A stretch of 56,820 nt of DNA from an uncultured Woeseia sp. (GTDB lineage Bacteria; Pseudomonadota; Gammaproteobacteria; Steroidobacterales; UBA11654). Positions 9,180 to 56,350 of the stretch are shown piece after piece. Both the position numbers and the translations under genes were made by a program. Below the pieces are notes generated by a model. It was not told where the DNA came from. It searched no databases and saw only the letters and a program-made list of their open reading frames with translations. The stretch lies in the NCBI GenBank assembly GCA_964416745.1, contig CAYQEV010000003.1, forward strand, positions 1-56,820, read 5' to 3'. Position 1 is the first letter of the stretch. Each line of letters begins with the position of its first letter.

Positions 9180-9192
9180 TCATGTTGCGATT

Positions 9193-16605: not shown

Positions 16606-16826
16606 ATTTTTCCTTATTTATTTCTTTTAGTAATATTCGAGTATTGAGTATGTACATAGAACAATAGCAATGACTCCATATAATACCGGTGCTAGCAGAA
16701 AAATTAATCAAAAATTGCTATAATCTACTTTTATCGGTTTCCAGCATACTCTTTTATGCCATTGACTGGTTGAGGCCAACAGATTTCTCGATAAAAAATT
16801 TTAACAAATAAACAAAATATAAACTT

Positions 16827-19800
16827 ATGTCTTTTAGACCAAAACTAAAGGTTGGATTGTACGATGCTCAGTTTGAGCATGATAGTTGTGGGGTTGGTTT
16901 TGTTGCTGATATCAAGGGTATAGAGAGCAGGCAAATAGTAAAAGATGCCCTTACTATTCTCTGTAACATGGACCACAGGGGAGCCAGAGGCGCTGAAGCA
17001 AATACTGGTGACGGAGCAGGAATTATCACAGGCATCCCTCATCAATTTTTTAAGAACATTGCGTCAGATTTATTTGACCGTGTTGTATTGAAAAAAGACA
17101 CATACGCAGTAGGAAATATTTTTCTACCAAAAGATAAAAAAGAACAAAGTTATTGTAGGGATTATTTTAAAAAAATCTGCCAGCAAAATGACCTAAAGCT
17201 ATTAGGGTGGAGACAGGTGCCATTTGATATTGAAGGCTCAAATATAGGCCCATCAGCCATACAAGCAATGCCTATTATCGAACAAGTGTTTATTCAAAAC
17301 ACTATAAATATTGACGATCAAGAGAGTTTTGAAAGAAGGCTTTATTTAGCTAGAAAAAAAGCCAGTAACGATCTTAGGAATGACGAAGCTTTAAAAGGTT
17401 CAAGCCTCTTCTATATTAACAGTCTGTCATCTAAAACAATTGTTTATAAAGGCATGTTAACTTGTAACCAATTAGCAGCGTTTTATCTTGATCTTAGTGC
17501 TGAGGAGTTTGAGTCACATCTAGCCATGGTTCACTCCAGATTCTCAACTAACACATTTCCAAGTTGGGATCGAGCGATGCCAAACAGGATGATGTCTCAT
17601 AATGGTGAAATTAATACCATTAAAGGGAATATTAATTGGATGAGAGCAAGAGAAGGCAATATTGAGTCCGATATTTATGGTGAAAAAATCAAAGAACTGT
17701 TCCCTGTGATAGAGAAGGACTGCTCAGACTCTGGTAATTTTGATAATGTCCTAGAGTTTCTAACGATGACAGGAAGAAGCCTGGAAGAGTCAGTTTTAAT
17801 GATGGTGCCGGAGGCATGGCAAAACAAGAAAACATTGTCCAAAGATAGAAAGGCATATTACGCGTTTACTTCTAATTTAATGGAACCATGGGATGGGCCA
17901 GCATCAATTACATTTACTAATGGAGATGTTGTCGGGGCGGTTCTTGATAGAAACGGGCTAAGACCTAGTCGTTATTATATAACTAAAGATAATAAGGTGA
18001 TTATGGCCAGTGAGGTAGGTGTCTTACCAATCTCTGATGACAACATTTTGATTAAAGGAAGGTTAGCACCTGGAAAAATATTTCTCATTGATTTTAAAAA
18101 AGGCCAAGTGCTTTCAGATGATGAGGTAAAAGAACCTCTAATAAATGCCAAACCATATAGAGAGTGGTTACACGATAACCGACTAATTTTTAGAAAAATA
18201 AAACAATCAAGATCAGACCCTTCGTTTTCATTGGAAGAGCTTACTCGAAGAATGAGAGCCTTTGGTTATACCTCAGAAACTCTAGAGTTTATGCTGTTAC
18301 CTATGGTGCATGACTTAAGGGACCCTTTAGGGTCAATGGGTAATGACTCTGCTTTGGCTGTTTTAAGCGACAAACAACGCATGCTGTATGATTATTTTAA
18401 ACAATTATTTGCTCAAGTCTCAAACCCCGCAATTGACTCCATAAGAGAAAAAATCATAATGTCTCTGGAGTGTTATATTGGCCCAGAAAAAAACATACTA
18501 AACCCTGGAGAAGGCCATGCACATCGATTATTAGTTGATCATCCGATTCTAACCAGTACCGCCCTGTATGCCTTGAAGCATCTTGATCATGAGGGCCACA
18601 AAAGTAAAGTAATAGATATAACCTTTAATATTTCTGACTCGTCAACAGAAGATTTAAAAACTGCTGTTAACAGGGTTTGTCAGCAAGCAGAAGAAGCTGT
18701 TGATAATGGTGTGGGCTTCTTGGTTCTTTCAGACAGAAGCGTTAATCATGAATTTGCAGCTATAAGTAGTTTAATGGCTTGTGGTGCCGTTCATCATCAC
18801 TTAACTAAGGTGGCAAAACGAACAAAAACAGCGATTATAATTGAAACAGCTGAGGCCAGGGAGGTTCACCATTTTTGTCTCCTCTTTGGTTATGGGGCAG
18901 ACGCTATCAACCCTTATTTAGCCTATGAAACACTCATTCATGCAAAAGATGAAGGCTTAATCAAACACGCTCACCATCGTCGTGGCAAGGAAAATAGAAT
19001 TTTATTGGATAGTAACGAAGAAGTTATCGACGCTTATCGCCAAGCCGTTATTAAAGGCGTGCTTAAGGTGATGGGTAAAATGGGAATATCCACCCTTCAG
19101 TCTTATAAAGGAGCACAAATTTTTGAAGCCCTTGGTTTAGCTCAAGAGGTAATTGACCTATGTTTTGCTGGCACAACAAATCGGATAGAGGGTGCCGATT
19201 TTGCATTATTAGAAAAAGAAGTAAAGCAACGACATAGTCTTGGTTGGCCACAAGACACTAATTCAAATATAGATAACCTTCCAAATCCTGGGGAATTTCA
19301 TTGGAGAAGCCAAGGAGAAAAGAAAGCTTGGGACCCAGAAACCGTTTGGTCGTTACAATATGCTGCACGTAAAAATGATAAAAACGCTTACCAACAATTT
19401 GCATCTAATGCTAACCGCACAGCTGAAGAGTCATTATCTCTAAGGGGACTACTAGGATTTAATACCTCTAAGAATAAAAATATAGATATCAAAAATGTAG
19501 AGCCTGCAAGCCAAATTATTCAACGTTTTTGCACCGGGGCCATGAGCTTCGGCTCTATCTCATCAGAAGCACATGAAACACTAGCTATTGCTATGAATAG
19601 AATAGGTGGGAGAAGCAATAGTGGAGAAGGAGGTGAAGACCCAGAGCGCTTCAAGCCGATGAAGAACGGTGACTCTAAATCCTCAGCGATTAAACAAATT
19701 GCTTCTGGCCGTTTTGGTGTTACAGCTAATTACATTGCCAATGCAAAACAACTACAAATCAAGATTGCACAAGGTGCAAAACCAGGCGAAGGTGGAGAGC

Positions 19801-38133: not shown

Positions 38134-39402
38134 ATGATAAGAATCTCTGATGTTCTTAATCCTGAGTTTATAAATGCAATTGAATTTGAAGAACAGCCTT
38201 ATTTTATTAAATTTAAACAATATCCAGGACTTAGGATTAAGGTTAATCCCAAAGGAAGAATTTCATATATTACATACGGGAGAATACACTTTGGCGGCAG
38301 GCCAAGGACAGTTACTCATGGAACTACAAAAAACCTAACTATAGATAATGCCCTTGATAAGCATTTTCAATGTTTGAAGTTATTACAGAAAGGTCTTGAT
38401 CCAAATTTAATTAAAAAGAGTAAAACTAAACAATTTACTGCTTCAATGAATTTTTTATATGTTGCAGAAGATTTCATAAAAGACAAAATCGAAAAAAATG
38501 AATATTCCTATGAATTTGCAAGTCATTCATCTAAATACTTATTAAACAATAAGCTTAAATATTTCCATAAAATTAATATTGGACAAATTACTAAAGAAAA
38601 AATAGAAGATTGGTATAACCAAGAAAAAAGAACTCCCGCAGCTAGGCATAATGCACTAAGGCTAATGTCATCAGTGTTTTCATATGCTGGAACGCAGAAC
38701 ATAGTAGAAAAATCATTCAACCCTACAAGCAAAATGTTCAATGAGGGTATGAGCTATCAACCCAAATCAAAAGATATACAATTAAGCCTTGATAATGAAC
38801 TCCCTAACTTTATATATCAAATGTGGGATCCTTTGAATAATAACAAGGTAGATAGATTAAGCAGGAATGCAATTTATTTTATGTTATTCACAGGCATAAA
38901 AAAATCAGATGTATTAAATATGAAATGGAGTCAAATTACAGGTAATAGTTATATATTGATTGAGAAAAAAAACTATAAACAAATGCTACCAATAACACCT
39001 TCAATTGAGCTTGTCTTGAAAGATATACGAGATCATCAAATTAGTAATAAACACCTTATTGGTAATGAGTATTTATTTTTTAATATCAAAACAGGCAAGC
39101 CAATTAATAATTTAAGAAAAACATTCGTGAAATATTCTAAAGATCTCGAATGGACTGTATACCCTGAAGCAATTAGAAAAACTTTCGCTAAGGTTTGTGA
39201 TTATTCATCTATACCAAGAGAACATTTTTACCAGTTATTAGGAATAAAAAAAGCATATAACCCATATCAGTCATATCCAGATAATAAAGACGATATTAAT
39301 AGACTAAAAAAATCATTGATCAATGTGCAAGCAAATATAGATAAAGCAGCACCCATGTTAATTCCTGGACAATTAACTAAAATATCAGATTTTATCTTTT
39401 AG
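38134..39402 (+). CDS. Tyrosine-recombinase (P4-type, DUF4102-like N-terminus) integrase homologue with non-canonical catalytic positions
   Basis: 422 aa. The N-terminus GLRIKVNPKGRISYITYGR..GGRPRTVTHGTTKNLTIDNALDKHFQCLKLLQKGLDPN fits the P4-integrase arm-binding domain pattern. The C-terminal region has FTGIKKSDV (expected TGxRxxE), YPEAIRKTF (expected HxLRHT) and LLGIKKAYNPY (expected LGH...Y). Confidence 0.75.
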   Translation: MIRISDVLNPEFINAIEFEEQPYFIKFKQYPGLRIKVNPKGRISYITYGRIHFGGRPRTVTHGTTKNLTIDNALDKHFQCLKLLQKGLDPNLIKKSKTKQFTASMNFLYVAEDFIKDKIEKNEYSYEFASHSSKYLLNNKLKYFHKINIGQITKEKIEDWYNQEKRTPAARHNALRLMSSVFSYAGTQNIVEKSFNPTSKMFNEGMSYQPKSKDIQLSLDNELPNFIYQMWDPLNNNKVDRLSRNAIYFMLFTGIKKSDVLNMKWSQITGNSYILIEKKNYKQMLPITPSIELVLKDIRDHQISNKHLIGNEYLFFNIKTGKPINNLRKTFVKYSKDLEWTVYPEAIRKTFAKVCDYSSIPREHFYQLLGIKKAYNPYQSYPDNKDDINRLKKSLINVQANIDKAAPMLIPGQLTKISDFIF

Positions 39403-40642: not shown

Positions 40643-40659
40643 ATATTGATAATCAATAT
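40643..40659. promoter_or_regulatory. 17-bp palindrome ATATTGAT-A-ATCAATAT in the divergent adhC/UbiD intergenic region (candidate operator)
   Basis: Read directly. 8-bp arms around a single central base, 43 nt from the adhC ATG and 66 nt from the UbiD ATG. The AT-rich context weakens significance. Confidence 0.35.
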
Positions 40660-40724
40660 TCTAGGTATTAGATTATTATTGATGCCTATTGTAAGCTATC
40701 ACCTCAAATTAATTTAAATTAAAC

Positions 40725-42119
40725 ATGCATAGATCCTTTAGAGAAATTGTTAACATCCTTGATAAAAAAGGGAGCCTCATACATATCAAAAAAGAGGTTA
40801 ATCCTAAATTTGAAATGCCAGGAATAATGAAAAAACTAGAGCAGGAAGGTAAGGCGTTTATATTCGAAAACATTAAAGGCTCAAACTATAAAGCAGTTGG
40901 CGGAATATTTACTTCCATGGATCGTTATGGGTTAATTTTTAATGAAGACGCTAGTGAAAGCTTCACATATGATCAAGCCGGTAAAAAAGTTCAACAAGGA
41001 ATATCTAATCCTATTCCTTATATTCAAAATGACACAGGCCCCATAACAGAAAACATATTAACCAATGATGAAATTAATTTATTGGACTTACCTGTGCCTA
41101 CATTTTTTGAGCTAGATACAGGACCATTTATTACAGCAGCAGTAGGTATTTTCAAAAAACCAGGAGGTGAAATTAATGTTGGTTTTTATCGATGCCTGAT
41201 TGTTGACGAGAAACACATATTAATTAATGCTAGCGGCCTGAGCGACCTACGTAAAAGCTATAATTGGCATCGCGAAAACAATAAAGAAATGAAAGTCGCT
41301 ATGGTTTTGGGTGCGCCCCCAGCCTTATTAATGGCTGCTGCTTCAAAATCACCAGAACATATTTCGGAACTGGATGTGGCCGGTGGAATTATAGGGGATG
41401 GGGTTAAAGTAGTGTTGGGCCCTAAAACTGGATTACCTATTCCAGCTGATGCTGAGATGGTCATTGAAACCGTCGTTGATCTCGACAATATGGTGGAAAA
41501 TACGTTGGGTGAGTTTGGTGCACAGTATGGAACTGAAACAGCGCCGATGTGTAAGGTCACATCAATTCTTAAGCGGAACAATGCAATGTTTTATTCATTA
41601 ATGGCTGGCAGAGCCAAGGAACATAACAATTTAGGTTATCTAACTGTTTATGGAATGTCGGAAATGATTAAACAGAAAATTAAAGAGGTTTTTTCATTTG
41701 TTACTGATGTGGTGGTTCATTTTGATACTAAGATAGGCCCACTAATGCATCTTGTTATTGCTATTAAGAAATCATCAGATTTGCAACCGAAAGAGGTTAT
41801 TAATGAAGTGTTTAATATTAACATGGGATTTTTCAATTTATCCTGGATGGCTAAACGGGTAATTATTGTTGATGACGATGTAGACCCATCTAATATGGAT
41901 GATGTTGAATGGGCAACATGGACAAGAATGGGTCGGGCAGAAAAAGTTTATTTATTTTCAGATTTTATTACTTGGGAAATTGATAGAGCAGCATTGCCAG
42001 ACAAAACTTCATTAAGGGTTGGAATAGATGCAACAAAAGACATGGAACAGGTTGATGATTTAGTTAGGCCTGTTGTTCCGGGGATTGATAATATAAATCT
42101 AGATGATTACATTAGTTAA
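40725..42119 (+). CDS. UbiD-family (prFMN-dependent) reversible decarboxylase
   Basis: 464 aa. UbiD-like layout with the acidic motif VENTLGEFGAQYG (compare EGPFGE in characterised members, from memory). No ubiX in the window. Confidence 0.8.
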   Translation: MHRSFREIVNILDKKGSLIHIKKEVNPKFEMPGIMKKLEQEGKAFIFENIKGSNYKAVGGIFTSMDRYGLIFNEDASESFTYDQAGKKVQQGISNPIPYIQNDTGPITENILTNDEINLLDLPVPTFFELDTGPFITAAVGIFKKPGGEINVGFYRCLIVDEKHILINASGLSDLRKSYNWHRENNKEMKVAMVLGAPPALLMAAASKSPEHISELDVAGGIIGDGVKVVLGPKTGLPIPADAEMVIETVVDLDNMVENTLGEFGAQYGTETAPMCKVTSILKRNNAMFYSLMAGRAKEHNNLGYLTVYGMSEMIKQKIKEVFSFVTDVVVHFDTKIGPLMHLVIAIKKSSDLQPKEVINEVFNINMGFFNLSWMAKRVIIVDDDVDPSNMDDVEWATWTRMGRAEKVYLFSDFITWEIDRAALPDKTSLRVGIDATKDMEQVDDLVRPVVPGIDNINLDDYIS

Positions 42120-42140
42120 TTATAAAAGAGGGTATTAATA

Positions 42141-43196
42141 ATGGATCCATATTTAGCGGTAGGACTCCAAACTAAGATCAAGCACGTCACATCTCGCCAA
42201 GAAGTGAGTAGAAACTTAAACCATATTGGCAACATGATAGATATGGTAACTCACATGTGCTCTTTAGAGCTTCCTGTTAGGCTTATTGCTCTAGGGGAGG
42301 GGGCAATTCAGGGTTTTGTTGATGAAATAATGGATTTGGATCAAGCTGACTACGCTAAGAATATGGCAGCCGAGATTCCAGGGTTTGAAACTGATTTCTT
42401 GGGTAAATACGCTAAGAGTAAAAATACTTTTATTATTGGGCAACTAAAAGAAAAATTACCAGATTACCCAGATCGTTTCTTCAATACAGTTTTTATTATT
42501 GATGACAATGGAGATGTTATTTATAAACACCATAAAAACATTGTTGTCTTTGTTGAACACTCGACAACGCCTCACGATGTTTATGATCAATGGATTGAGC
42601 AACACGGAGATAGCCTTGAAGCGTTTTTCCCTGTTGCCAAGACCAAGATTGGCAATATAGCAGGCACGGTTGGTGTAGAGGGTTCTTTTCCAGAATCATT
42701 CAGAGCATTTGCTATGAATGGAGCAGAAATTCTTTATCGAGCGTCATTGCCGGAGCCATGGGTTTCAAGAGAAATCTTTGAGGTTCAAAATCGTTCCAGA
42801 GCAATTGACAATACCTGTTATATGGTTGCACCTAATTCTGGGTCACTGATTATGCCTGGAAACGAAGGCGAGGACCCAACAGTGATTGATGGTGCTCTCG
42901 GTGGTTGCTCCTCAATTATTGATTATAAGGGGACAGTTTTAGCCCATAACCAAATCGTGGGCGACAGTTATGTCGCATCTGAAATTAATATTGATGCACT
43001 TCGATACTATAGAGAAAATGCAAAGTTTCAAAATTGGATTCCCTACTTGAAGACCGAGATTTATAGAAAAATATATGATCAAGAAATATGGCCAAAAAAC
43101 CTACCTCCAATGAATCATGAAGATGCTGGAGAAGTCTTTAAAAAGACAATCAAAAAGCTTATTGAGTCTGGGGTATACACCCCAAGAAATAAGTAA
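42141..43196 (+). CDS. Carbon-nitrogen hydrolase (amidase/nitrilase superfamily) paralogue lacking the nucleophile cysteine
   Basis: 351 aa. Roughly one-third identical by eye to the 45560-46702 protein along its whole length. Glu (ALGEGA) and Lys (YKHHKN) positions are kept, but the nucleophile elbow reads GTVGVEGSFPE where the paralogue has TLICAEGSYPE. 21 nt downstream of the UbiD gene. Confidence 0.75.
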   Translation: MDPYLAVGLQTKIKHVTSRQEVSRNLNHIGNMIDMVTHMCSLELPVRLIALGEGAIQGFVDEIMDLDQADYAKNMAAEIPGFETDFLGKYAKSKNTFIIGQLKEKLPDYPDRFFNTVFIIDDNGDVIYKHHKNIVVFVEHSTTPHDVYDQWIEQHGDSLEAFFPVAKTKIGNIAGTVGVEGSFPESFRAFAMNGAEILYRASLPEPWVSREIFEVQNRSRAIDNTCYMVAPNSGSLIMPGNEGEDPTVIDGALGGCSSIIDYKGTVLAHNQIVGDSYVASEINIDALRYYRENAKFQNWIPYLKTEIYRKIYDQEIWPKNLPPMNHEDAGEVFKKTIKKLIESGVYTPRNK

Positions 43197-43200
43197 ATCC

Positions 43201-43635
43201 TTAAGAAATTATTAGTCGCATTAGCACCATCTCTACTGCTATTTTATCTACATCTTGTCTTATAGGCCTACCTTGCTTATAACCCACTTCAGCAAAAAAA
43301 CCAGAAACCCTGCTGTGCTTACAAATTGCCTCAAGTTGATCTGCAATTAATTTATTATCCTCAAACTCAACATCAATCTTAGCTTCAATCATGTTACCTT
43401 TATATAAGAGCTTTATTTTTTCTAAATTGACTAGGTTTCTCCACCAAATAAATGGTCGATCTGTTATGCAGCTAAGTCTACCTTCTGGGTTTTCAAGATA
43501 ACTAACAGGAATGGCATAATCTTTTCCAGTTTTAACCCCCTTAAAATATAAGACAACTACATTTGCACTTATTAATCCATGTAAGAATGAATTTGCTATC
43601 GCAATCGTAATTGGGTTTATCAGTTTCCAGAACAT
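43201..43635 (-). CDS. Small DUF385-like (deazaflavin-dependent nitroreductase/quinone reductase fold family) protein
   Basis: 144 aa. Pattern ..VVVLYFKGVKTGKDYAIPVSY...IWWRNLVN..KIKLLYKG.. resembles the DUF385/split-barrel family. Weak assignment. Confidence 0.45.
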   Translation of the reverse strand: MFWKLINPITIAIANSFLHGLISANVVVLYFKGVKTGKDYAIPVSYLENPEGRLSCITDRPFIWWRNLVNLEKIKLLYKGNMIEAKIDVEFEDNKLIADQLEAICKHSRVSGFFAEVGYKQGRPIRQDVDKIAVEMVLMRLIIS

Positions 43636-43656
43636 AAAAATTATTATAACTGGATT

Positions 43657-45543
43657 TTATAACATTAACTGTTCGTTGACTGCTCGATCAGCAGCATCTA
43701 TAGCGCCAATAAGATAAGCGTAAGCCGAGGCATCTGAGTTAGCTATTGAAATACGTCCAATTTGTGCTCGGCCAGCAATGTGCGGCCCATTGCTTGGGCT
43801 GAATTCCACAGGATCAGAATAATCAAGATATTCGTAGGCATAACCATGTGGCCATCGATTAACTGTAATTGCTGCTATGTCTTGCTCTGCATCAAATCCA
43901 CCGTCACGCAGTGCACCACTCATTTGGCTAACAATGTTTTTCTCAAAATCATCAAAACTCATTTCATATAACCTAGTTCTTCCAGCTATACATTGCTCTC
44001 GAGCATTCAGCCCTTTATCCGGGTCTAGGGGTACATGAGTACCATGAATAACAGTCGGCTCGTCTGGATTTTGGGTGAAATTGTAACCTCCCATACTGAC
44101 TGGAAAATCAAGACCAAACGAATGCATTAAACTGGGTTGTGGGATATAGAAACTTCGGTATCCAAGATTTGAGAATGCATTCCAATTCCTAACAGCAACA
44201 CTGATATACACTAACGGCATTTTTGTGGCATAAGCAATGGCTTCCTTCTGTGCATCAGGCACCTCGGGACAAATATCTGGAATAATATTGTTGTAGCATG
44301 CCATGATCACATGGGCTCCTCTCACTCGATATGGGCTTCCATCCTTGATATAAGTAACATCGACTGACTTCTCACTTGGCGTATGCTCTACTTTAACAGC
44401 CGTAGAGTTTAATCTGATACGAACCTTTAATGAGTCCAAATCAAGCCCGGCATAATCAACTCTTGCTTTCACAAGATCTTCCATGGTTGTACCTGAAATA
44501 GCGCTAGGTATTAACTCACGGACAATTGATCGAGCAAACCCTGCATTACCATCTGGAAAATGAAAAATATAAGGCTCATCCCTCTCATAGCTTTGTTCGG
44601 CTATTTTGAGGTTAAGACCCAGTGTTCCAGGCATATCTGATTTATAGGCATCCAAAGCAGATAATGCATCCCACCCTATGCCCCATAGACCTCGAGACAT
44701 ATCTCTGTAGAGCAATACAACCTCTTCAGAAACATTGACGTATTTTCTTAAAAAATCACTATAACTTGTTTGTCTAAGCAGATTAATTTTATCCTCTTGA
44801 GACCCCATCCCTAGGAGGTAATTCTCTGTTTGACTCAGTAATTTAATCAGAGCAGTTTTTGAAGCTTCAGCAATAGGGTAGGCATTAATAAGGTCAATGA
44901 TCTCCTGTTCATTATCTTTTATTTTGGCTCCCAAAATATTATCTGATACATAATCTTTGCCATATTGATCACGACTGAAATACAGACCACGACCTAGTTT
45001 TCGATCTTTGAAATAATTACGATCAAAATAATCATAAAAACGCTCGGTGTGAACCCCTACATCTTTGAGTAGTTTCTTCCCTACAGGAGACCAACTGCTT
45101 GGGTCAGCGATAGATTGACTGCCTCCATAGCCAATCAGTTGCTTGCCATCAACAGTGAACTCATTACGTTTTGCATGACCCCCAAAATCATCATGATTAT
45201 CTAAAATTAATATTCTTGAATTCTTCCCATGACGTTGCTTGTAGAGATACGCTGCCGATAGACCTGAAATACCTCCTCCAACAATCACAAGATCATAATC
45301 ACGATCAGTCTGATCAGTAGGCTCTGTCCAACGTGCACCATTTCTAGCCAGGGCGTGTGCAACTTCAAATGAACCAGGATGACTGCCTCGCATACCGATG
45401 AGTTCAGGTGGATATAATGCATCAGCACTGGATTGATGACTCATGGCGAGTAGTTCAAGAGGTGATAATGCAGTGCCTGCAGTCAAACTCATAGCTACAC
45501 CGTTCATAAAATCACGCCGCGTAATGTTTAACTTTTTAGTCAT
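43657..45543 (-). CDS. Tat-exported FAD-dependent amine oxidoreductase, spermidine-dehydrogenase (SpdH)-like
   Basis: 628 aa. Twin-arginine signal ITRRDFMNGVAMSLTAGTALS, dinucleotide fold YDLVIVGGGISGLSAAY, and size and layout like Pseudomonas SpdH as remembered. Confidence 0.65.
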   Translation of the reverse strand: MTKKLNITRRDFMNGVAMSLTAGTALSPLELLAMSHQSSADALYPPELIGMRGSHPGSFEVAHALARNGARWTEPTDQTDRDYDLVIVGGGISGLSAAYLYKQRHGKNSRILILDNHDDFGGHAKRNEFTVDGKQLIGYGGSQSIADPSSWSPVGKKLLKDVGVHTERFYDYFDRNYFKDRKLGRGLYFSRDQYGKDYVSDNILGAKIKDNEQEIIDLINAYPIAEASKTALIKLLSQTENYLLGMGSQEDKINLLRQTSYSDFLRKYVNVSEEVVLLYRDMSRGLWGIGWDALSALDAYKSDMPGTLGLNLKIAEQSYERDEPYIFHFPDGNAGFARSIVRELIPSAISGTTMEDLVKARVDYAGLDLDSLKVRIRLNSTAVKVEHTPSEKSVDVTYIKDGSPYRVRGAHVIMACYNNIIPDICPEVPDAQKEAIAYATKMPLVYISVAVRNWNAFSNLGYRSFYIPQPSLMHSFGLDFPVSMGGYNFTQNPDEPTVIHGTHVPLDPDKGLNAREQCIAGRTRLYEMSFDDFEKNIVSQMSGALRDGGFDAEQDIAAITVNRWPHGYAYEYLDYSDPVEFSPSNGPHIAGRAQIGRISIANSDASAYAYLIGAIDAADRAVNEQLML

Positions 45544-45559
45544 TCTCTAAATCTGACCA

Positions 45560-46702
45560 TTAACTAATATCTTTTGCTTTATCGATACGGCTTTGAACTG
45601 ATTCACTAACTTCATAAGGTTCCCAGTTATCTGGGGGCGAATACACCCCCATTTTGACCATTTTGTTCACTTGATGTTTAACTAATTCCAATTGATCTTC
45701 TTCTGTAAATGGCGGTTCGTCCATACATAAATTCCTAGGGTAAATACCTCCTTTTGCCATCATTGCATCGTAGATCACTTTATATTCCTCAACTCTCATA
45801 TCTTTTGCTAAATTTTGCCACTGCCCCCTTACGCGAAAATCTCTCAAACCATCAATATTAATGATGCCGCTAACAAGAGCCTCGCCTCCACCTAAATATT
45901 CAGAAATAATTTGTCCACGATAGTCAATAATTTGGCTACGACCATTGCTCATTTTAAAGTCATCCATTCCGGGCATATATATGCCTCCGATATTTGGAGC
46001 AAGCACATAACATGTATTAAAAATAGCATGTGATTGATTTTGAATTTGGTTCATTTTATTACCCATCCATGGTTCAGGGTATTGAGATCGATATATAACT
46101 TCAGCTCCATTTAAAGCTAACCCCCTGGCAGCTTCTGGGTAACTACCCTCAGCACAAATCAATGTTCCAATATTACCGATTTCAGTTTTAGCAACTGGAT
46201 AAAGAACATCAAGAAGTTTTTCTGGATCATCACCATATTTCTCTAAATACAGGTTCCATATATCACTTGGGGCAGTATTTGTTTCTCTTTGATAAAAAGA
46301 CGTTTTTATATGTTGGTGTATCACGTCACCATTAGGGTCAATCATAAAGGCTATATTGAATATTCTGTCTTTCATCAAATCAGGAGCTTTGGCGATCATT
46401 TGGGCAATAAGATAAATATTAAACTCTTTACATATAGCCCCCAGAAATTCTGTTTCTTTACCTGGAATTTCTGGCACCACTTCTCTAGAAATACGAATAT
46501 GCTCATCACCTCCGCCTAGACACCAACCACCTATTCCGCCCTCAGAAACCGAAACTAATCTTACAGGTAGGTCTAGGCTGCAGTTCCATACTGCATAACC
46601 AATGCTGGTTTGAAGACGTTCAAGGTCTTTCCAATAGTCATCAATGCTTGTCGCCATATGCGACTCATTTTGTATACCCACAGCGGTATATTGAAGTGTC
46701 AT
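45560..46702 (-). CDS. Carbon-nitrogen hydrolase (aliphatic amidase-like), catalytic triad intact
   Basis: 380 aa. Glu in SVSEGG, Lys in HQHIKT, Cys in GTLICAEGSYPE (compare AmiE IICDDGNYPE, from memory). C-terminal ~60-aa extension. Confidence 0.78.
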   Translation of the reverse strand: MTLQYTAVGIQNESHMATSIDDYWKDLERLQTSIGYAVWNCSLDLPVRLVSVSEGGIGGWCLGGGDEHIRISREVVPEIPGKETEFLGAICKEFNIYLIAQMIAKAPDLMKDRIFNIAFMIDPNGDVIHQHIKTSFYQRETNTAPSDIWNLYLEKYGDDPEKLLDVLYPVAKTEIGNIGTLICAEGSYPEAARGLALNGAEVIYRSQYPEPWMGNKMNQIQNQSHAIFNTCYVLAPNIGGIYMPGMDDFKMSNGRSQIIDYRGQIISEYLGGGEALVSGIINIDGLRDFRVRGQWQNLAKDMRVEEYKVIYDAMMAKGGIYPRNLCMDEPPFTEEDQLELVKHQVNKMVKMGVYSPPDNWEPYEVSESVQSRIDKAKDIS

Positions 46703-49589: not shown

Positions 49590-52352
49590 TTAGGTCTCAA
49601 TATATCTCTCAAAATCACAAGTGTAATCATGAAAAGTATGGTTGGGCTCATAGGCAAAAGGCTTCCATCCTAGATGTTCATAATCTCCCACTAACGAAGT
49701 GGGTTTAATTAAACCACCAGTTTGAACAACAGCGCTGAAGTTTTGTCTATTCCTAAACATCATAGGGTCCCAACCATGATACATATACATCATATTGGGC
49801 CCCATGGCAGAGGTCACATGAGCTTGTGCTATAAAAGAACCCGCTATACTAAACACTTTAACTAAGTCACCATCACTAACACCCTTGTTTTGTGCGTCAT
49901 CAGGGTTAACATAGACATCAGGCTCACCTCTCTGAAGGCTTAGCAGAAAACTGTCGTCTCTCCACATACTATGTATTCCATGACGAGCATGACCCATGAG
50001 CATTTTCATTGGGTAACCCTCATTGACCAAGGGATCTTTATGACGTGGTAGAACCTCATCAAATTCAAAAAACCAATCATGATCAATATAAAATTGCTGT
50101 CGATGAGTGAGCGTTTTATACCCAACTTTATGGTTAACGCTTTCCCAGATCTCTGAGTAATAAGGGGACTCTTTACTATGAACTGTTGTTTCAGAGCCTT
50201 TATTTCTTGAAAAACCCTTCTCAGCGAGCTCATCATAACTTATTTTTTGTATACCGCTTGAGTTGTTAAGAAGAAATTCAATAACATCCTTGACTGAACG
50301 AATTGAGCCATCACTAGTGTAGTCTTTATGGAAGTTCTTAAAATCTCGTTTAAAAGGAACGCCAACCACATTATCATCAATCGGCTTGATATCTCTTTCT
50401 ATTGCTCTTTGAGCAATTGCTTTTGATAATTTTTCATAAGCCGTCCAGTCATCTACCGACTCCCCAAGTGGTTCAACCGCCTTATCAATTACTTGCATAT
50501 AAGGAGTTCTAGGCTCTAAATGAAAATCATGTCGTTCATAATGGTGTGCAATAGGTAGAACATAATCAGAATACATTGCAGTTGTGCCCATATCAGTTGC
50601 AAAGGTAACAATTGTTTCTAATTTGCCAAATGCATTTTCTCTCCAATGTTGACCTGATGAACGCCAACTGGCCGCGTTAGTGCCTGAGAACATGCCCATT
50701 TTCCAGGGGACTTTTGAATAGTCAGGAAACCAACCCTTATCTGTTGATTCTTGAAAGTATCGGTCATACTCCTCCGCCAATTCTTCGCCATAAACCTCTT
50801 TATTTAGTTCTTTCATGTTCCCATGGACATAATCCCATCTTGAGAGAGTAGCAACTCTAAAGGCAGCTATAGGGTTTTTCATGGCAAAAGGAAAAACAGC
50901 ATCATCTTTTGCTAGGTTAGTAATGGTGAGGCCGCCCCCTTCTTTACCAGTATTACCAGTAATGCATAATAATAAAAAGAAAGCTCTTTGGAGCAAATCC
51001 CCATGTAAATACTTGGAGGCTCTATAACCTGCATAAATCATGCCGGGTTTTGCCTCTGCAAATTTTCTTGCTACTTCTCTTATTACCTCAGCATTAATGC
51101 CAGTAATATCTTGAGCCATTTCTGGAGTATGTTCCGAGGCTCTTTGTTTAGTGAGCTCAAATACAGTGGTAACAGTTACAGGACCATCTTTAGTTTCAAT
51201 AACCCACTCACCTTCCAATGCCGGATCAATTTCACCAAGATCAATAGAGGGCATTGGTGGTATTAAATGTTCAGGGGTGCCTGGAGGTGGAGGCGGAGGT
51301 GTTCCTGTCCCAGGAGCAGCTATAAAACTATCAGTGTTGTTATCCCATAAATAAAACAAATTATCTCTTGTTTCTGGGCTATCCAGGATGTCGGTTTCTC
51401 TTATGTATTTATAATTATCTTTTCTTACAAGAAAAGGGAGATCCGATTGTTCCTTTATGTATTTTACATCATAGGTTTTATCATCCAGTATGGTTTTCAC
51501 CATTGCCATTGCTAAAGCAATATCACTGCCTGGATTGGGGTTTAACCATTTACTTGCATGCATTGCTGTGGCATTAAAATCAGGAGAAATTGAAATAACT
51601 TCTGTTCCATTATATCTTGCTTCCCAAAAGAAATGAGCGTCAGGAATACGAGTCACTGCAGGGTTACAGAACCATATCAGACAACATTTAGACTTATAGA
51701 TTTCTGCCATGGTATTACCCAGCGTTACATGCCCTAAGGTAATTTGTGCTCCAGAAAATAAATCACCAACTCCTGCGAAGGCTTCAGGCATTTGAACCCC
51801 ACTAATATTGGCAAATCTAAGTAAGCTCGCATAAGAAGCCCTTTTCATTACCATTTGTGTGCCTAGTCCGCAGGTGATCGATTCAGGCCCATCTTCAAGA
51901 TTATGATCTATAAATTTATCTGCCACTTCTAGCATCGCTTGGTCCCACGAAATTCTTTCCCATTTGCCTTCGCCTCGCTCACCAATACGCTTTAAGGGGT
52001 ACAAGATTCTTTGCTTGCCATACATATACCTTGAATGACTTAATCCCTTTTGACAGCCTCTCGGTCCATAGTCCGGGGCATCACTTGATGCACCATACTC
52101 TCCTTGCTGTTCCTCTCTCCAAACAACGCCATTCTTTACAAAAACATTGAAAGCACATTGTCCTGTACAGTTGGTGCCATGTGTGGAGTGAGTGACACTA
52201 TCCCATGTCCATTTTTTTCGAGCCAAGTCTTCCCATGCTCTATAAGGTGTTGATGCTTGCCCAAGAATTGAGGAAGAGTAGTTAAGCGTTAAACTTGAAA
52301 AAGTTGTTCCAAGTAAAAAATTTCTTCTGTTAGTTTTTATGTTGGAGTCCAT
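49590..52352 (-). CDS. Tat-exported molybdopterin oxidoreductase, type II DMSO-reductase family (NarG/EbdA/DdhA-like catalytic subunit)
   Basis: 920 aa. Twin-arginine signal TNRRNFLLGTTFSS. FS0 cluster motif H-x3-C-x3-C-x33-C in THGTNCTGQCAF..GPRGCQKG. Candidate Mo-ligand Asp in AFAGVGDLFSG. Hexaproline tract GTGTPPPPPPGTPEH encoded at 51282-51299. Confidence 0.8.
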   Translation of the reverse strand: MDSNIKTNRRNFLLGTTFSSLTLNYSSSILGQASTPYRAWEDLARKKWTWDSVTHSTHGTNCTGQCAFNVFVKNGVVWREEQQGEYGASSDAPDYGPRGCQKGLSHSRYMYGKQRILYPLKRIGERGEGKWERISWDQAMLEVADKFIDHNLEDGPESITCGLGTQMVMKRASYASLLRFANISGVQMPEAFAGVGDLFSGAQITLGHVTLGNTMAEIYKSKCCLIWFCNPAVTRIPDAHFFWEARYNGTEVISISPDFNATAMHASKWLNPNPGSDIALAMAMVKTILDDKTYDVKYIKEQSDLPFLVRKDNYKYIRETDILDSPETRDNLFYLWDNNTDSFIAAPGTGTPPPPPPGTPEHLIPPMPSIDLGEIDPALEGEWVIETKDGPVTVTTVFELTKQRASEHTPEMAQDITGINAEVIREVARKFAEAKPGMIYAGYRASKYLHGDLLQRAFFLLLCITGNTGKEGGGLTITNLAKDDAVFPFAMKNPIAAFRVATLSRWDYVHGNMKELNKEVYGEELAEEYDRYFQESTDKGWFPDYSKVPWKMGMFSGTNAASWRSSGQHWRENAFGKLETIVTFATDMGTTAMYSDYVLPIAHHYERHDFHLEPRTPYMQVIDKAVEPLGESVDDWTAYEKLSKAIAQRAIERDIKPIDDNVVGVPFKRDFKNFHKDYTSDGSIRSVKDVIEFLLNNSSGIQKISYDELAEKGFSRNKGSETTVHSKESPYYSEIWESVNHKVGYKTLTHRQQFYIDHDWFFEFDEVLPRHKDPLVNEGYPMKMLMGHARHGIHSMWRDDSFLLSLQRGEPDVYVNPDDAQNKGVSDGDLVKVFSIAGSFIAQAHVTSAMGPNMMYMYHGWDPMMFRNRQNFSAVVQTGGLIKPTSLVGDYEHLGWKPFAYEPNHTFHDYTCDFERYIET

Positions 52353-52378
52353 AGAATAAATGTATCATAAACTTTTCT

Positions 52379-53023
52379 CTAAGCGTTATGTTGTCCTGGC
52401 AATACAAGAACTTTACCACTCGCTTGACCAATAGCAAATTCGACTAGATTCATTCGATCATTACCGAAAAATATTTGGTTTTCAACAACCATTGTGGGGC
52501 TACCATAACCACCTTTATCTATAAGTTCATTAGTGTTCTGTAATATGATGTCATGATTTTTTTCACTTTCAATAGTCAATCTAAAGTTGTCTATATCCAT
52601 ATCTAATTGTTTGGCAATCCCAATTAGAATCTCACTATCAGCAATATCAGCCATGTCACTAAAAAATGCTTTAAACACTTTTGCGCTGTATTCAGCAATG
52701 GTGTTTTCAGTTATTGCAGCTAAAGCACCCCTAGATGCTTTAAGGGACACGCTGTGATCTAAATTTTTATGTTCTTTAATATCAAGACTGCAGTAAGATG
52801 CCCAATCTTGTAGGTCTTTTGTACGATAATCAGCTACATAGTCAGGTGTAGTTTGTGTCGGCTTATTCAGTAGTTCCTTAATTATATCTAGGTTAATTGG
52901 CTTCCATTCAATGATTGACGCGGTTCTAGTTGCCGTTTGTATAAGTCGCTTAAAACCTAAGTATGTCCAAGGGCAACTATAGTCAAAATAAAACTTAACG
53001 GTGATTTTTTTTTCGCTCATCAA
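52379..53023 (-). CDS. 2-hydroxychromene-2-carboxylate isomerase / kappa-GST (DsbA-like) family protein
   Basis: 214 aa. Single-Cys thioredoxin-fold motif FDYSCPWTYLGF and C-terminal SPTMVVENQIFFGNDRM, typical of the HCCA isomerase family. Confidence 0.75.
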   Translation of the reverse strand: MMSEKKITVKFYFDYSCPWTYLGFKRLIQTATRTASIIEWKPINLDIIKELLNKPTQTTPDYVADYRTKDLQDWASYCSLDIKEHKNLDHSVSLKASRGALAAITENTIAEYSAKVFKAFFSDMADIADSEILIGIAKQLDMDIDNFRLTIESEKNHDIILQNTNELIDKGGYGSPTMVVENQIFFGNDRMNLVEFAIGQASGKVLVLPGQHNA

Positions 53024-54582
53024 GAGTCCTTTCGTAAGGTTGTTTTTAGAACTTTACCATTAGCATTTCTAGGAATTGAGTCTATAAATTCGATAATTTT
53101 TGGCGTTTTAATTTTAGAAATATTCTGTTCACAAAATGCAAGTACTTCTTCCGATTTTAGTGCATTAGGATTATGGGTAACAATAAATGCCTTTAAAGAT
53201 TCCCCCCATTTTTCATCTGGAACTCCAATAACTGCAACATCTTGTATATTGGGGTGGTTATATAAAACATCTTCTATTTCTCTTGGGTAAATATTCACCC
53301 CACCTGAAATCACCATATCTTTTTTTCGATCAACGATATACAAGTAACCGTCTTCATCTTGTTTAGCCATATCACCCACTGTTAACCATCCATCAACTAA
53401 GGCTTCTTTTGTGTCATTAGGCCTTTTCCAATAACCATTAAATAGATAAGGACTCGTAGAGAACAATTCACCGACCTCATTTGGTTCACAGATATTTCCT
53501 GACTCTGTAAGGGTTTTAATTTCTGTGCAAGGAAACGCTTGCCCCACACATTGTAACTTTTTGAGTTGATCATCAGGCCTTAAATTAGAGATAATCCCTC
53601 CCTCTGTTGACCCATAGGTTTCATGAAGTAGGCCTGCACCGAAGTGTTCAATAATTTGTTCTTTTACCTGTTGGGGCAGAGCTGCAGCATTAGAAATGAT
53701 TGATTTAAGTTGATGAGATTTCGCATTATTAAGAATAGATTGCTCAAGACTAAGAATGCCATGGAAATGTGTTGGCACTCCAAAAAACCCGGTAATATTG
53801 TCATTTTTCATTGTTTTTAAAACAACCTCTGGGTCAAAAGAATCCATTATTTCTGCATAACCACCAAAGAAGATAGGAGCTAAAGAGAAAATCATACCGG
53901 CTCCATGACACATGGGTGCAATAGCTAGAAAACGGTCATCAGGAGAGTAACAACCATACTCAACCGCCATTCCAAATAAAGTTAGGATTCTTGAGCGATG
54001 TGGCACCAGAACCCCTTTAGGTTTTCCAGTTGTTCCTGAGGTGTAAGGCATGGTGAACACATCCCATTCCATAACAACCGGACTTTCTTTGAGAGGTTTG
54101 CTGATATTAATCCAATCCTCAAGGTCGCTTTCAATCACAATAATTTTTTCAACTGTTGAGAAAACAACATTTTCTAGAGCCATATACGATGCCTGGTCCA
54201 TAAACAGGATCTTAGCTTCAGCATCATCACATATTGCCTTAATTTCCTTGTCAGATAATTTGGGGTTCACTGTAGCTATGGGTATACCAGCTTGAGAGGC
54301 CCCTAAGACTATCTCCATATATTCAATAGAATTACTAGCGACTATAGCAACATGGCCTTCAGAGGGGTTTAAATGATGCAGTAACCCAGAAGAGATCCTA
54401 TCCATTCGTTGGACCAAATCCTTATAGGTTCTTTTTTTGTTTCCATGTTTATAGGCAGTTTTACTTGGGTTCCTCGACATTGCGGAACGAATACCTTCGG
54501 GTATTGATAGGTGTCTATAGGTATTAGGTAATTGAATGTTTGATTCCACTCTATTTATCCAAGTTGAATACTTGAATCGCAT
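53020..54582 (-). CDS. AMP-dependent acyl-CoA synthetase/ligase
   Basis: 520 aa. YTSGTTGKPKGV, YGSTEGG, GDMAKQDEDGYLYIVDRKKDMVISGGVNIYPREIE. 4-nt overlap (ATGA) with the downstream gene and 32-nt overlap with the upstream gene. Confidence 0.9.
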   Translation of the reverse strand: MRFKYSTWINRVESNIQLPNTYRHLSIPEGIRSAMSRNPSKTAYKHGNKKRTYKDLVQRMDRISSGLLHHLNPSEGHVAIVASNSIEYMEIVLGASQAGIPIATVNPKLSDKEIKAICDDAEAKILFMDQASYMALENVVFSTVEKIIVIESDLEDWINISKPLKESPVVMEWDVFTMPYTSGTTGKPKGVLVPHRSRILTLFGMAVEYGCYSPDDRFLAIAPMCHGAGMIFSLAPIFFGGYAEIMDSFDPEVVLKTMKNDNITGFFGVPTHFHGILSLEQSILNNAKSHQLKSIISNAAALPQQVKEQIIEHFGAGLLHETYGSTEGGIISNLRPDDQLKKLQCVGQAFPCTEIKTLTESGNICEPNEVGELFSTSPYLFNGYWKRPNDTKEALVDGWLTVGDMAKQDEDGYLYIVDRKKDMVISGGVNIYPREIEDVLYNHPNIQDVAVIGVPDEKWGESLKAFIVTHNPNALKSEEVLAFCEQNISKIKTPKIIEFIDSIPRNANGKVLKTTLRKDS

Positions 54583-55408
54583 TCTCTCGGAGAACTAGTT
54601 TTTTAGATGAATCTTTAAAATTTAGATTATTAAATTCATCAACTGCTCTTATCGGATCGATAACAGGCCAGTCAGTTCCAAACATGACTTTATGTTTTCC
54701 ATATGAATTAGCATAATGAACAAAGGATTCCGGCCAATATTTAGGTGCATAAGCATCGCCAGCCGTATAAATATTCTCATGTTTCCAGCACATCGATATC
54801 ATTTCTTCAGTCCAAGGAATACCAATATGTATACCAATAAGCTTTAACTCTGGGAAATCAATGGCTACTTGATCCAAATATATTGGTTTGCCAACACTGG
54901 GAAGTCTTCTATTTTTTGAATAAATTAAATTATGTCCAACTTGCATCATGATGGGTATTCCAAGTTCACAACATTTTGCATAATAAGGGTAATACTTCCG
55001 GTGATTTGGTGGTAACTCACACCAATGAGGGTATAGGTGAGCACCAACAAAACCATATTCTTTAACTGCGGCTTCTAAATCATTTAACCCTTCCATACCC
55101 CTAAATGGATCTACACCAGCCAATCCAGAAAATCTGTCTGGGTTTTGACGGCAAACATCGTAGACTCTTTCATAAGGTATCTCAAAAGATTCAGGAACTT
55201 TGATATCACCAGCCCTGACAGCAATTAATAATGACCTTTCAATACCAGCTTGATCCATTTTCTTAATATAATCAGGGATCGTAACACCACCCCTCATCTC
55301 TTCTGGCATTCTTACTTGTTTTTTGAAATCTTCGTCCAGGCCTGTTTGTCCAAGCTCCACTTCCTGTGGAGTAAAAAGATTAACCACAATGTCGATTATG
55401 CCACTCAT
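54551..55408 (-). CDS. Amidohydrolase_2 (PF04909; ACMSD/LigI-like metal-dependent hydrolase/decarboxylase) family protein
   Basis: 285 aa. N-terminal IIDIVVNLFT, IMMQVGH, IGIHIGIPW, and C-terminal FGTDWP aspartate motif. Confidence 0.78.
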   Translation of the reverse strand: MSGIIDIVVNLFTPQEVELGQTGLDEDFKKQVRMPEEMRGGVTIPDYIKKMDQAGIERSLLIAVRAGDIKVPESFEIPYERVYDVCRQNPDRFSGLAGVDPFRGMEGLNDLEAAVKEYGFVGAHLYPHWCELPPNHRKYYPYYAKCCELGIPIMMQVGHNLIYSKNRRLPSVGKPIYLDQVAIDFPELKLIGIHIGIPWTEEMISMCWKHENIYTAGDAYAPKYWPESFVHYANSYGKHKVMFGTDWPVIDPIRAVDEFNNLNFKDSSKKLVLRENAIQVFNLDK

Positions 55409-55444
55409 CAGCTTTACTTTATTATGAGGTTAATAACCTAGAGA

Positions 55445-56350
55445 TTATTGACCATCTAAATCCCATGGCCCTGTTGATTTAGACCTAACTGGAATTCCAG
55501 CCATTACTGGTGCTTGAGTTTCTGGATCATAGTTAACAGCATCACCTTTGACAATAACTTCTGAATTAAGAGTAACCCAGTTAATTAGAGCTCCATCTAG
55601 CCTAAAGATCCAACTTGCTCCCATTTCTTCACCCGTAATAAAATGGCCATGCTTCACTTTTGCTGGCCTGAAAAAATAAGTCCCAGGTGTGAAACGTCCA
55701 AAATTATAATCAAGATGCCCAGTTAAAGTATAAGCTTCCTCAAAAATGGGATGATGTATGAGTCTATCATCTGTCCATCCTGGTGGCGCCCATCCAAGCA
55801 TAGTAATAAATCCTTTTTCATTCTGGTCCTCGGGAGACGGATCATGGTAGAGAATTTTGAGTTGTAAAAAACGCTGTGTATCACCTTCATAGATATTATC
55901 CATCCAATCCATTTTTGTGGAATCGCAAACAGTTAATTTACCAGGCTCTTCTGAGGCAGTGTTGCCCCCTTCAGGAATAAAATCACTCTTATCTGTTTCA
56001 GAAACTGAAAAGCCCCAATCACCATACTCTCTAAAAATAAGAACTTCAGCACCCTTATCAACACTAATGGCAGGAACTTTCAAACCAGCCGGTGCTCGCC
56101 AATACATTCCCGGACCAAAAATTTGGTCTCCCATTTTTACTTTACCTTCTAAGACAAACCATTCTGTGTCAGCTTCATGATAACCAGCAGGACGATCCCA
56201 TTCAGTTTCAAAATATAGTTTTGTTGAACAAGATCCATCTTCTTCATCATAAGAGAGGTTTCTTTGCATTACTCTTCCTGTGCCTGCGTGAAGTTCAGCA
56301 GGGTGCCAACAAAGGTCACTTTGTTGTATTAGTTCTACATGAGGTCTCAT
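55445..56350 (-). CDS. Bicupin protein, second barrel ChrR-like (cupin_7-like); function unknown
   Basis: 301 aa. Two cupin-like cores: HEADTEWFVLEGKVKMGDQIFGPGMYWRAPAG and HHPIFEEAYTLTGHLDYNFGRFTPGTYFFRPAKVKHG. First gene of the minus-strand operon. Confidence 0.6.
   Translation of the reverse strand: MRPHVELIQQSDLCWHPAELHAGTGRVMQRNLSYDEEDGSCSTKLYFETEWDRPAGYHEADTEWFVLEGKVKMGDQIFGPGMYWRAPAGLKVPAISVDKGAEVLIFREYGDWGFSVSETDKSDFIPEGGNTASEEPGKLTVCDSTKMDWMDNIYEGDTQRFLQLKILYHDPSPEDQNEKGFITMLGWAPPGWTDDRLIHHPIFEEAYTLTGHLDYNFGRFTPGTYFFRPAKVKHGHFITGEEMGASWIFRLDGALINWVTLNSEVIVKGDAVNYDPETQAPVMAGIPVRSKSTGPWDLDGQ

Follow-up and report, generated by a model that had tools for sequence, protein, structure and literature searches.

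A UbiD-family decarboxylase gene in conserved linkage with the gene for a cysteine-less CN-hydrolase-fold protein in uncultured Gammaproteobacteria

The DNA analysed here, a stretch of 56,820 nucleotides (nt) from an uncultured Woeseia sp. (the window), encodes a UbiD-family (de)carboxylase and, directly downstream on the same strand, a protein of the CN-hydrolase fold that carries a glycine in place of the nucleophile cysteine (CNg). A second, Cys-bearing CN-hydrolase (CNc) is encoded further downstream on the opposite strand. An earlier note, which relied on the letters of this stretch, had suggested that CNg is a pseudoenzyme, either a structural or substrate-binding subunit or a protein of altered chemistry, recruited next to the decarboxylase. 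Our analysis bears out that the Cys-to-Gly exchange is real and that the gene as well as its position next to the UbiD gene are conserved. Recruitment of a pseudoenzyme is, however, not the sole reading, since the cysteine was lost recurrently in the wider subfamily and an Ala-bearing member stands alone in its locus: thiol-independent activity is also possible. We tentatively favour the idea that UbiD and CNg form a dedicated module of two proteins, in which the partner has the CN-hydrolase fold but no thiol nucleophile and which works alongside a real amidase, CNc.

The linkage of the two genes was followed in both directions. A scan with one genome per species yielded 224 genomes with a relative of CNg, all of them metagenome-assembled genomes (MAGs) or single-cell assemblies, which are mostly labelled Gammaproteobacteria ('Woeseia', 'Chromatiales') and in a few cases Alphaproteobacteria. 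We read 80 of these loci (L numbers, which are also used for further loci below), among them L001 and L002 ('uncultured Woeseia sp.'), which are 98-99% identical to the window. CNg orthologues, taken as proteins with at least 61% identity, are present in 78 loci, and 77 of these include upstream DNA: the UbiD gene lies directly upstream of the CNg gene on the same strand in all 77. In 14 loci the two genes overlap, by 1, 4 or 8 nt, and overall the spacing ranges from -8 to +48 nt, larger negative values having been set aside as over-extended starts of open reading frames (ORFs). The exception is L002, in which the UbiD gene (8418-9976) is split into the overlapping ORFs 8418-9740 and 9527-9976 by a frameshift or an assembly error. 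For the reverse test, metagenome contigs were scanned with the UbiD alignment: a Gly-type CNg gene follows the UbiD orthologue (at least 40% identity and enough downstream DNA) in 37 of 38 cases, and the UbiD homologues at 24-39% identity lack it. Thus, the adjacency is not unique to this genome and recurs in more than a hundred other uncultured bacteria. The CNg reading frame is intact in the loci read wherever the contig covers the gene, and the adjacency persists though the surrounding genes turn over completely between loci. Among uncultured Gammaproteobacteria of marine, freshwater and soil habitats, the UbiD-CNg system appears to be widespread. As is generally known of operons, genes that retain their order over such a phylogenetic depth, with little space between them or even an overlap, typically encode physically cooperating proteins, which suggests that CNg and UbiD act together physically.

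The only Pfam match of CNg is CN_hydrolase (PF00795, 81.5 bits at a gathering cutoff of 23.2), and its scores against the models for aliphatic amidase (NF009802, 46.0 bits) and formamidase (NF009803, 42.8 bits) are far below the respective equivalog cutoffs of 427 and 406. The protein aligns end to end with CNc over 359 columns (39% identity, E = 8e-85). Gly178 of CNg (codon GGT) shares a column with Cys183 of CNc, both with hmmalign and with MAFFT and across about 140 family domains, and a phmmer alignment places the motif TVGVEGS of CNg opposite IVCDDGN of the Geobacillus aliphatic amidase (2plq, 4lf0). According to the AlphaFold2 model (predicted local distance difference test 86, predicted template modelling score 0.87), residue 178 follows strand 173-177 and precedes helix 179-182, which places it at the nucleophile elbow. 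A Foldseek search with this model retrieved the formamidase AmiF, the aliphatic amidase AmiE, Nit2 and carbamoylases (E 1e-18 to 1e-21), with AmiF and AmiE at the top (about 1e-21); the model shows the amidase/formamidase fold intact. The Glu-Lys-Cys triad of the nitrilase superfamily is incomplete in CNg: Glu53, Lys132 and Glu139 are present, and the Cys position is Gly178. Since glycine occupies the nucleophile position, CNg cannot form the thioester intermediate. Judged by its sequence, the protein belongs to the CN_hydrolase fold family but is outside its catalytic class. For about 20 residues to either side of the elbow, the window protein has no cysteine. We also considered a shifted nucleophile: the only invariant cysteine, Cys40, is shared with the Cys-bearing paralogue and gives way to Ser or Asn in family members that are more distantly related, which argues against a relocated nucleophile. 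What the earlier note had said of the active site therefore holds, i.e. the end-to-end alignment with CNc, the glycine in place of the invariant cysteine, the retained Glu and Lys, and the lack of another cysteine near the elbow; both peptides quoted there are present in the proteins.

The remainder of the active site is conserved. Gly178, Glu53, Lys132 and Glu180 are invariant in the best 120 database homologues of CNg (63-90% identity). In the CNg and the CNc families alike, Glu53, Lys132, Glu139 and Glu180 are conserved to at least 95% and are the same residues, which holds for 61 positions overall, 26 of which fall within residues 164-227 around and after the nucleophile elbow. The four residues are conserved together with the subfamily motif EHSTTPHDVYD-W. 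The retention of the Glu-Lys-Glu-Glu set suggests that the pocket of CNg is still under selection. In comparison to the three closest loci, the ratio of nonsynonymous to synonymous substitution rates (dN/dS) is 0.028-0.036 for CNg, 0.028-0.032 for CNc and 0.054-0.058 for UbiD.

The linked UbiD belongs to an atypical, divergent subfamily. The protein encoded in the window matches the Pfam families UbiD_N, UbiD and UbiD_C (59.5, 154.3 and 56.2 bits) and scores 254.1 bits on TIGR00148, above the family cutoff of 244.85. Its best solved relatives are the 2,5-furandicarboxylate decarboxylase HmfF (6h6v; 4e-40, full length) and the indole-3-carboxylate decarboxylase AnInD (7p9q; 1e-32). Four residues, Asn151, Arg156, Glu215 and Glu263, are invariant across the 77 linked UbiD proteins; we take them to correspond to N168, R173, E233 and E282 of Fdc1, among which R173 is the catalytic Arg and E282 the acid-base Glu. 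In the same numbering, N168, H191 and E233 are presumably the canonical Mn2+ ligands that anchor the phosphate of the prenylated flavin mononucleotide (prFMN). The acid-base Glu of the family is E278 in HudA (PMC7976604). All 77 linked proteins have an aspartate, Asp174, at the column of the expected metal-binding His (motif NAS[SG]xSDLR), as assigned in a MAFFT alignment with a gap nearby; this column is His in HmfF and in nine of 11 second UbiD proteins encoded in related loci. In the window UbiD, Asn151 and Glu215 of the Asn-His-Glu metal-ligand set are thus kept and the His column is Asp174, which could bind the metal in place of His. Glu258, the first Glu of the ExxxxE motif (presumably E277 of Fdc1), is variable among the 77 orthologues (E, S, P, V, W, D, N, Q, T or C). 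The Asp variant is also found in more distant UbiD proteins (28-38% identity) without a downstream CN-hydrolase gene (L128, L136, L139, L158-L160, L164 and L165), and it seems to be older and broader than the partnership with CNg.

The automatic annotation of the Joint Genome Institute labels the UbiD orthologues '2,5-furandicarboxylate decarboxylase 1'. By our estimate by eye, the window UbiD is about 25-30% identical to HmfF (PDB 6h6v, 6h6x), which has the His at the presumed metal-ligand column whereas the window protein has Asp. His296 of HmfF is kept in 75 of the 77 linked proteins (Gln in L050 and L077); in contrast, the columns of Arg304 and Arg331, which we take to be the ligands of the substrate carboxylate, are Val and Leu in the window UbiD and never Arg in the orthologues. 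The label is therefore not supported. Several loci have a second UbiD gene about 7-8 kb upstream of the main one (L023, L024, L026, L034, L059, L062, L063, L065, L066, L070 and L073), and another is present in L089 (87-1490). These second UbiDs have the canonical Asn-Arg-His-Glu-Glu-Glu residues and are 21-26% identical to the window UbiD; in L089 and in L023/L024 the gene adjoins one for a type III coenzyme A (CoA)-transferase, an arrangement reminiscent of phthaloyl-CoA decarboxylase systems.

CNc is probably an active amidase or carbamoylase: it matches PF00795 with 98.5 bits, and the cysteine is kept in 108 of 109 orthologues. Downstream of CNg, at a distance of 9-9219 nt and on the other strand, a CNc gene (67-96% identity to the window copy) is present in 51 of the 78 loci; several of the loci without it have short flanks. 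CNc is a frequent but looser third member of the neighbourhood. In L173, a 74% identical CNc adjoins CNg and UbiD. Relatives of CNc at 62-63% identity, one annotated as Chloroflexota and the other unlabelled, stand alone with neither UbiD nor CNg within 10 kb. The Cys enzyme thus seems in general not to need the Gly protein; CNc looks self-sufficient, and it is UbiD that emerges as the tight partner of CNg. We rejected the possibility that CNg is a recent duplicate of the neighbouring CNc, with 39% identity between them and different subclades in a rough neighbour-joining tree; by these measures the two are ancient paralogues.

An exhaustive HMMER search of representatives at 50% identity gave 139 proteins at E < 1e-30 (P numbers). 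The nucleophile column of the 140 subfamily domains holds Cys in 90, Ala in 32, Gly in 14 and Ser in 4 cases. The rough tree suggests that Cys is ancestral and that this column has changed at least eight times; the Gly clade of CNg is sister to a large Ala clade (GRLGIMMANEG), far from CNc. With about one third of the domains affected and at least eight changes, the loss of the cysteine seems to be old and recurrent in the subfamily. Of the close non-orthologous relatives, P0121 (Gly, 53% identity) has no UbiD gene within 1.2 kb upstream on its short contig, and the contig of P0122 (Cys, 44% identity) is too short for context. In L088 a gene of the Ala clade (8001-9116) stands alone, and in L079 (Terriglobia) an Ala-type gene (16147-17256, minus strand) adjoins an isochorismatase-like gene. 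The wider family also includes tandem two-domain CN-hydrolases of about 640-745 amino acids in which a Cys domain is joined to a Gly or Ala domain (P0175, P0249, P0257, P0259 and P0267), which look like natural fusions of an active and a dead domain. P0163 and P0219 are tandem CN-hydrolases as well, and P0134 and P0146 are tandems with Cys in both domains.

For the favoured two-protein module we suggest the following working model. The UbiD and CNg genes would be co-transcribed and, in many genomes, probably translationally coupled. CNg, whose pocket is preserved, would still take up a small ligand of the amide or carboxylate type but would not hydrolyse it in the canonical way. It would act jointly with the decarboxylase, and its most likely role is that of a physical subunit or of a partner in substrate handling. 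The true C-N hydrolysis of the same pathway would be left to CNc, which may convert e.g. a (hetero)aromatic carboxamide or an N-carbamoyl compound to the acid that UbiD would then decarboxylate. A ubiX gene at another genomic site would provide, in trans, the prFMN that UbiD presumably depends on. It is tempting to go further, though we consider this doubtful, and to propose that the pair is a new UbiD holoenzyme with CNg as the obligate subunit for presenting, channelling or gating the substrate of the Asp-variant UbiD, or else that the Gly/Ala clade is the first thiol-independent lineage of the nitrilase superfamily. Several observations weigh against the module. The strict retention of the Glu-Lys-Glu-Glu residues speaks for a functional active site and against a role that is structural only. 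In L137 (27-923), a 43% identical UbiD orthologue with the motif NASSMSDLR is followed by the gene for a small predicted membrane protein and not by CNg. No fusion of UbiD and CN-hydrolase is among the matches listed, the long ones being CN-CN tandems or chimeric or frameshifted calls (P0145, P0166). CNc is absent from L039 and L042, for which 10 kb are available on both sides, and the Ala-type P0123, which represents a cluster of 1126 members mostly from MAGs of Actinomycetota, is encoded alone, with no UbiD or paralogue gene nearby.

The last of these points, together with the age and frequency of the Cys-less forms, the conservation of Glu53, Lys132, Glu139 and Glu180 along with the subfamily motif and a dN/dS as low as that of the active paralogue, fits a different idea: CNg may be a true enzyme with thiol-independent chemistry that catalyses the step immediately preceding or following the UbiD reaction and needs no stable complex. 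Possible examples are the attack of a Glu-activated water on an activated amide, imide or lactam, an acid-base tautomerisation, or a ring-opening. We judge this possible but less likely than the module, as every characterised enzyme of the nitrilase superfamily uses, to our knowledge, a Cys thioester and our literature search gave no report of a Cys-free one; moreover, genes that keep so close a spacing and so constant an order as those of UbiD and CNg more typically encode subunits than successive enzymes of a pathway. If, on the other hand, the relevant partner were CNc, CNg could be a dead, prozyme-like protein that forms a mixed oligomer with CNc via the usual dimer surface of the nitrilase superfamily, the adjacency to UbiD reflecting only a shared pathway. 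The frequent presence of CNc in the loci, often 9-60 nt away and convergent, the tandem fusions of Cys and Gly or Ala domains, the many positions shared between the two families around the elbow, and the Cys-type and Ala-type paralogues about 5 kb apart in L079 are in line with such a partnership. Yet the linkage to UbiD is tighter than that to CNc, which is missing from L039 and L042; relatives of CNc at 62-63% identity stand alone; and the dead domains of the fusions have usually lost the Lys as well, whereas CNg keeps it. We therefore regard a mixed oligomer as unlikely.

Still less probable is a role of CNg as a cofactor-handling accessory of UbiD similar to the prFMN chaperone LpdD or the maturase PhdC. 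UbiD systems do recruit unrelated folds for the binding or maturation of prFMN (PMC13040415), the metal/cofactor site of the partner UbiD is altered at the His column, and genes of the ubiX, LpdD or PhdC type were seen neither in the window nor in the annotated related loci. However, the conserved residues of CNg are the set for amide hydrolysis, no flavin-binding motif was seen, and the closest structural matches, amidase and formamidase, act on small amides, so that a pocket for a tetracyclic flavin nucleotide seems unlikely on general grounds. Finally, the loss of the canonical nucleophile is the single feature that would suit a decaying duplicate, a pseudogene or a gene under relaxed selection. 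This explanation, which the earlier note had named as a way in which its proposal might fail, is refuted by the intact frame in the loci read, the glycine kept by all 120 homologues, the most distant of which have 63% identity, the dN/dS of about 0.03 and the confidently predicted, intact fold.

The layout of the locus is summarized in Table 1. The ORFs of the UbiD and CNg genes were recovered at exactly the positions given before, 21 nt apart on the plus strand, and the statement that the window lacks ubiX is likewise confirmed: no ORF of at least 120 amino acids matches the UbiX family (PF02441, Flavoprotein). The match to a promoter in the 112-nt gap upstream of the UbiD gene is weak, with nine of 12 consensus positions, and shuffled versions of the region give more matches; it is a candidate for the start of a two-gene UbiD-CNg transcript.

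Table 1. Positions of the gene pair and associated features in the window
Feature	Position	Strand	Remarks
Candidate sigma-70-like promoter	40646..40674	+	TTGATA, 17 nt, TAGATT; within the 112 nt that precede the UbiD gene
UbiD-family (de)carboxylase gene	40725..42119	+	464 amino acids; Pfam and NCBIfam matches
Spacer between UbiD and CNg genes	42120..42140	+	21 nt, TTATAAAAGAGGGTATTAATA; Shine-Dalgarno AAGAGGG at 42126-42132, 8 nt before ATG
CNg gene (Cys-less CN-hydrolase-fold protein)	42141..43196	+	351 amino acids; own Shine-Dalgarno; Gly178 codon 42672-42674
Two clade-specific genes between CNg and CNc	43201..45543	-	Outside the conserved core
CNc gene (Cys-bearing CN-hydrolase paralogue)	45560..46702	-	380 amino acids; Cys183 codon 46154-46156

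Of the two genes between CNg and CNc, the first (43201-43635, minus strand) encodes a protein of 144 amino acids without a Pfam match that has counterparts only in L001-L017. The second (43657-45543, minus strand) encodes a flavoprotein of 628 amino acids with an N-terminal twin-arginine-like motif, 'RRDF', and an N-terminal FAD/NAD-binding domain as sole Pfam match; its counterparts are restricted to L001, L003, L005 and L010. Both genes are found between the two CN-hydrolase genes only in the marine Woeseia-like clade. On the other side of the module, a tyrosine integrase gene (38134-39402, plus strand; Phage_integrase and Arm-DNA-bind_3) lies in a stretch of low GC content (0.29) between the genes for a short-chain dehydrogenase/reductase and a class-III alcohol dehydrogenase. 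An integrase (42-90% identity) is present at the same position in L001-L018, which suggests an element that was fixed long ago and not a recent insertion. A block on the minus strand (49590-56350), which is near the module in 20-36 of the 80 loci, encodes a molybdopterin oxidoreductase of 920 amino acids with a twin-arginine translocation signal, a DsbA-like protein, an AMP-dependent ligase, an Amidohydro_2 protein and a DUF4437 cupin, and may be part of the same catabolic pathway as the UbiD module. In L081, the gene for the molybdenum enzyme is adjacent to one for a 4Fe-4S subunit. Two neighbourhoods contain other genes: a bufferin-like cluster for a ribosomally synthesized and post-translationally modified peptide (BufA1, MbnB_TglH_ChrH, HvfC_N and DoxX; L173, 13981-16430, on a contig of 1.29 Mb) is located directly beside UbiD, and a full-length paralogue of elongation factor G (EF-G) is encoded between CNg and CNc (L090, 11120-13249), the EF-G family being present in 16 loci.

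An assignment of the substrate from the neighbours was abandoned, as the genes vary between loci and do not form a single pathway. They include molybdopterin oxidoreductase, DsbA-like, AMP-ligase, Amidohydro_2, isochorismatase-like hydrolase, polysaccharide-deacetylase-like, cytochrome c and major facilitator superfamily transporter genes, and they hint at the catabolism of a nitrogen-containing or aromatic acid, nothing more. The salvage of 7-deazapurines (preQ0 or 7-carboxy-7-deazaguanine) was considered and dropped: the idea came from QueC and radical-SAM genes 8-9 kb away in L084 and L085 and had no consistent support in other loci.

UbiD enzymes are studied for reversible (de)carboxylation and for the fixation of CO2. 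When produced in heterologous hosts, they often rely for activity on partner proteins that are still little understood (PMC13040415, PMC8379154). A partner that is near-obligate, has a wholly different fold and is encoded in at least 224 species genomes would offer a concrete starting point for work on the activation and function of a UbiD clade that is uncharacterised. A large clade of the nitrilase superfamily that is devoid of the cysteine but has the rest of the active site intact and is under strong purifying selection is unexpected as well, and it raises the question of whether these are binding proteins or enzymes with a new chemistry. If true, either the holoenzyme or the thiol-independent lineage would add a class of accessory proteins to the UbiD/UbiX system and a functional state to the nitrilase superfamily. 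As the hosts are abundant uncultured Woeseia-like Gammaproteobacteria of sediments and the water column, the pathway may matter for the turnover of nitrogen-containing aromatic compounds.

We regard the pair, with its Gly-type CN-hydrolase fold, as a UbiD system with a new class of partner protein. The proteins that PMC8379154 and PMC13040415 name as associated with UbiD are UbiX, the zinc-ribbon protein VdcD, the chaperone LpdD, which binds prFMNH2, and the HpaC-like maturase PhdC/YclD; all are of other folds, as had been anticipated for the UbiD accessory proteins, and CNg shares no homology with any of them, its structural neighbours being nitrilase-superfamily enzymes throughout. A description of a UbiD-CN-hydrolase pairing or of Cys-less clades in the nitrilase superfamily was not found in the literature; most papers in subscription journals were outside this search, so that the absence is not proof. 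In VdcCD, BsdCD and LpdC-LpdD, as in the window, the UbiD gene adjoins a dedicated partner gene other than ubiX, and VdcD binds the UbiD hexamer tightly and is required for activity (PMC8379154). VdcD is, however, a small zinc-ribbon protein with four cysteines, whereas CNg, here a putative subunit, is an unrelated protein of 351 amino acids with a CN-hydrolase fold. The PhdA-PhdB-PhdC operon for phenazine-1-carboxylate decarboxylase resembles the window in that it combines UbiD with an accessory protein derived from an unrelated enzyme fold (PMC13040415); in that case, the accessory protein has the HpaC-like flavin-reductase fold and acts on the cofactor, and the operon carries its own ubiX gene (phdB), whereas the partner in the window is amidase-like and the window lacks ubiX. 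AmiE and AmiF are closest to CNg both in structure (template modelling scores 0.64-0.82) and among the NCBIfam models: they share the fold, the C-terminal extension and the positions of the Glu, the Lys and the second Glu, but they have the nucleophile Cys where CNg has Gly, and the identity is about 20-24%. Finally, CNg invites comparison with the prozyme of the trypanosome S-adenosylmethionine decarboxylase, reportedly a paralogue without the catalytic residue that is under purifying selection and encoded alongside the active paralogue. In contrast to such prozymes, CNg has its tightest genomic partner in the unrelated UbiD rather than in the active paralogue, and it keeps most of the catalytic residues.

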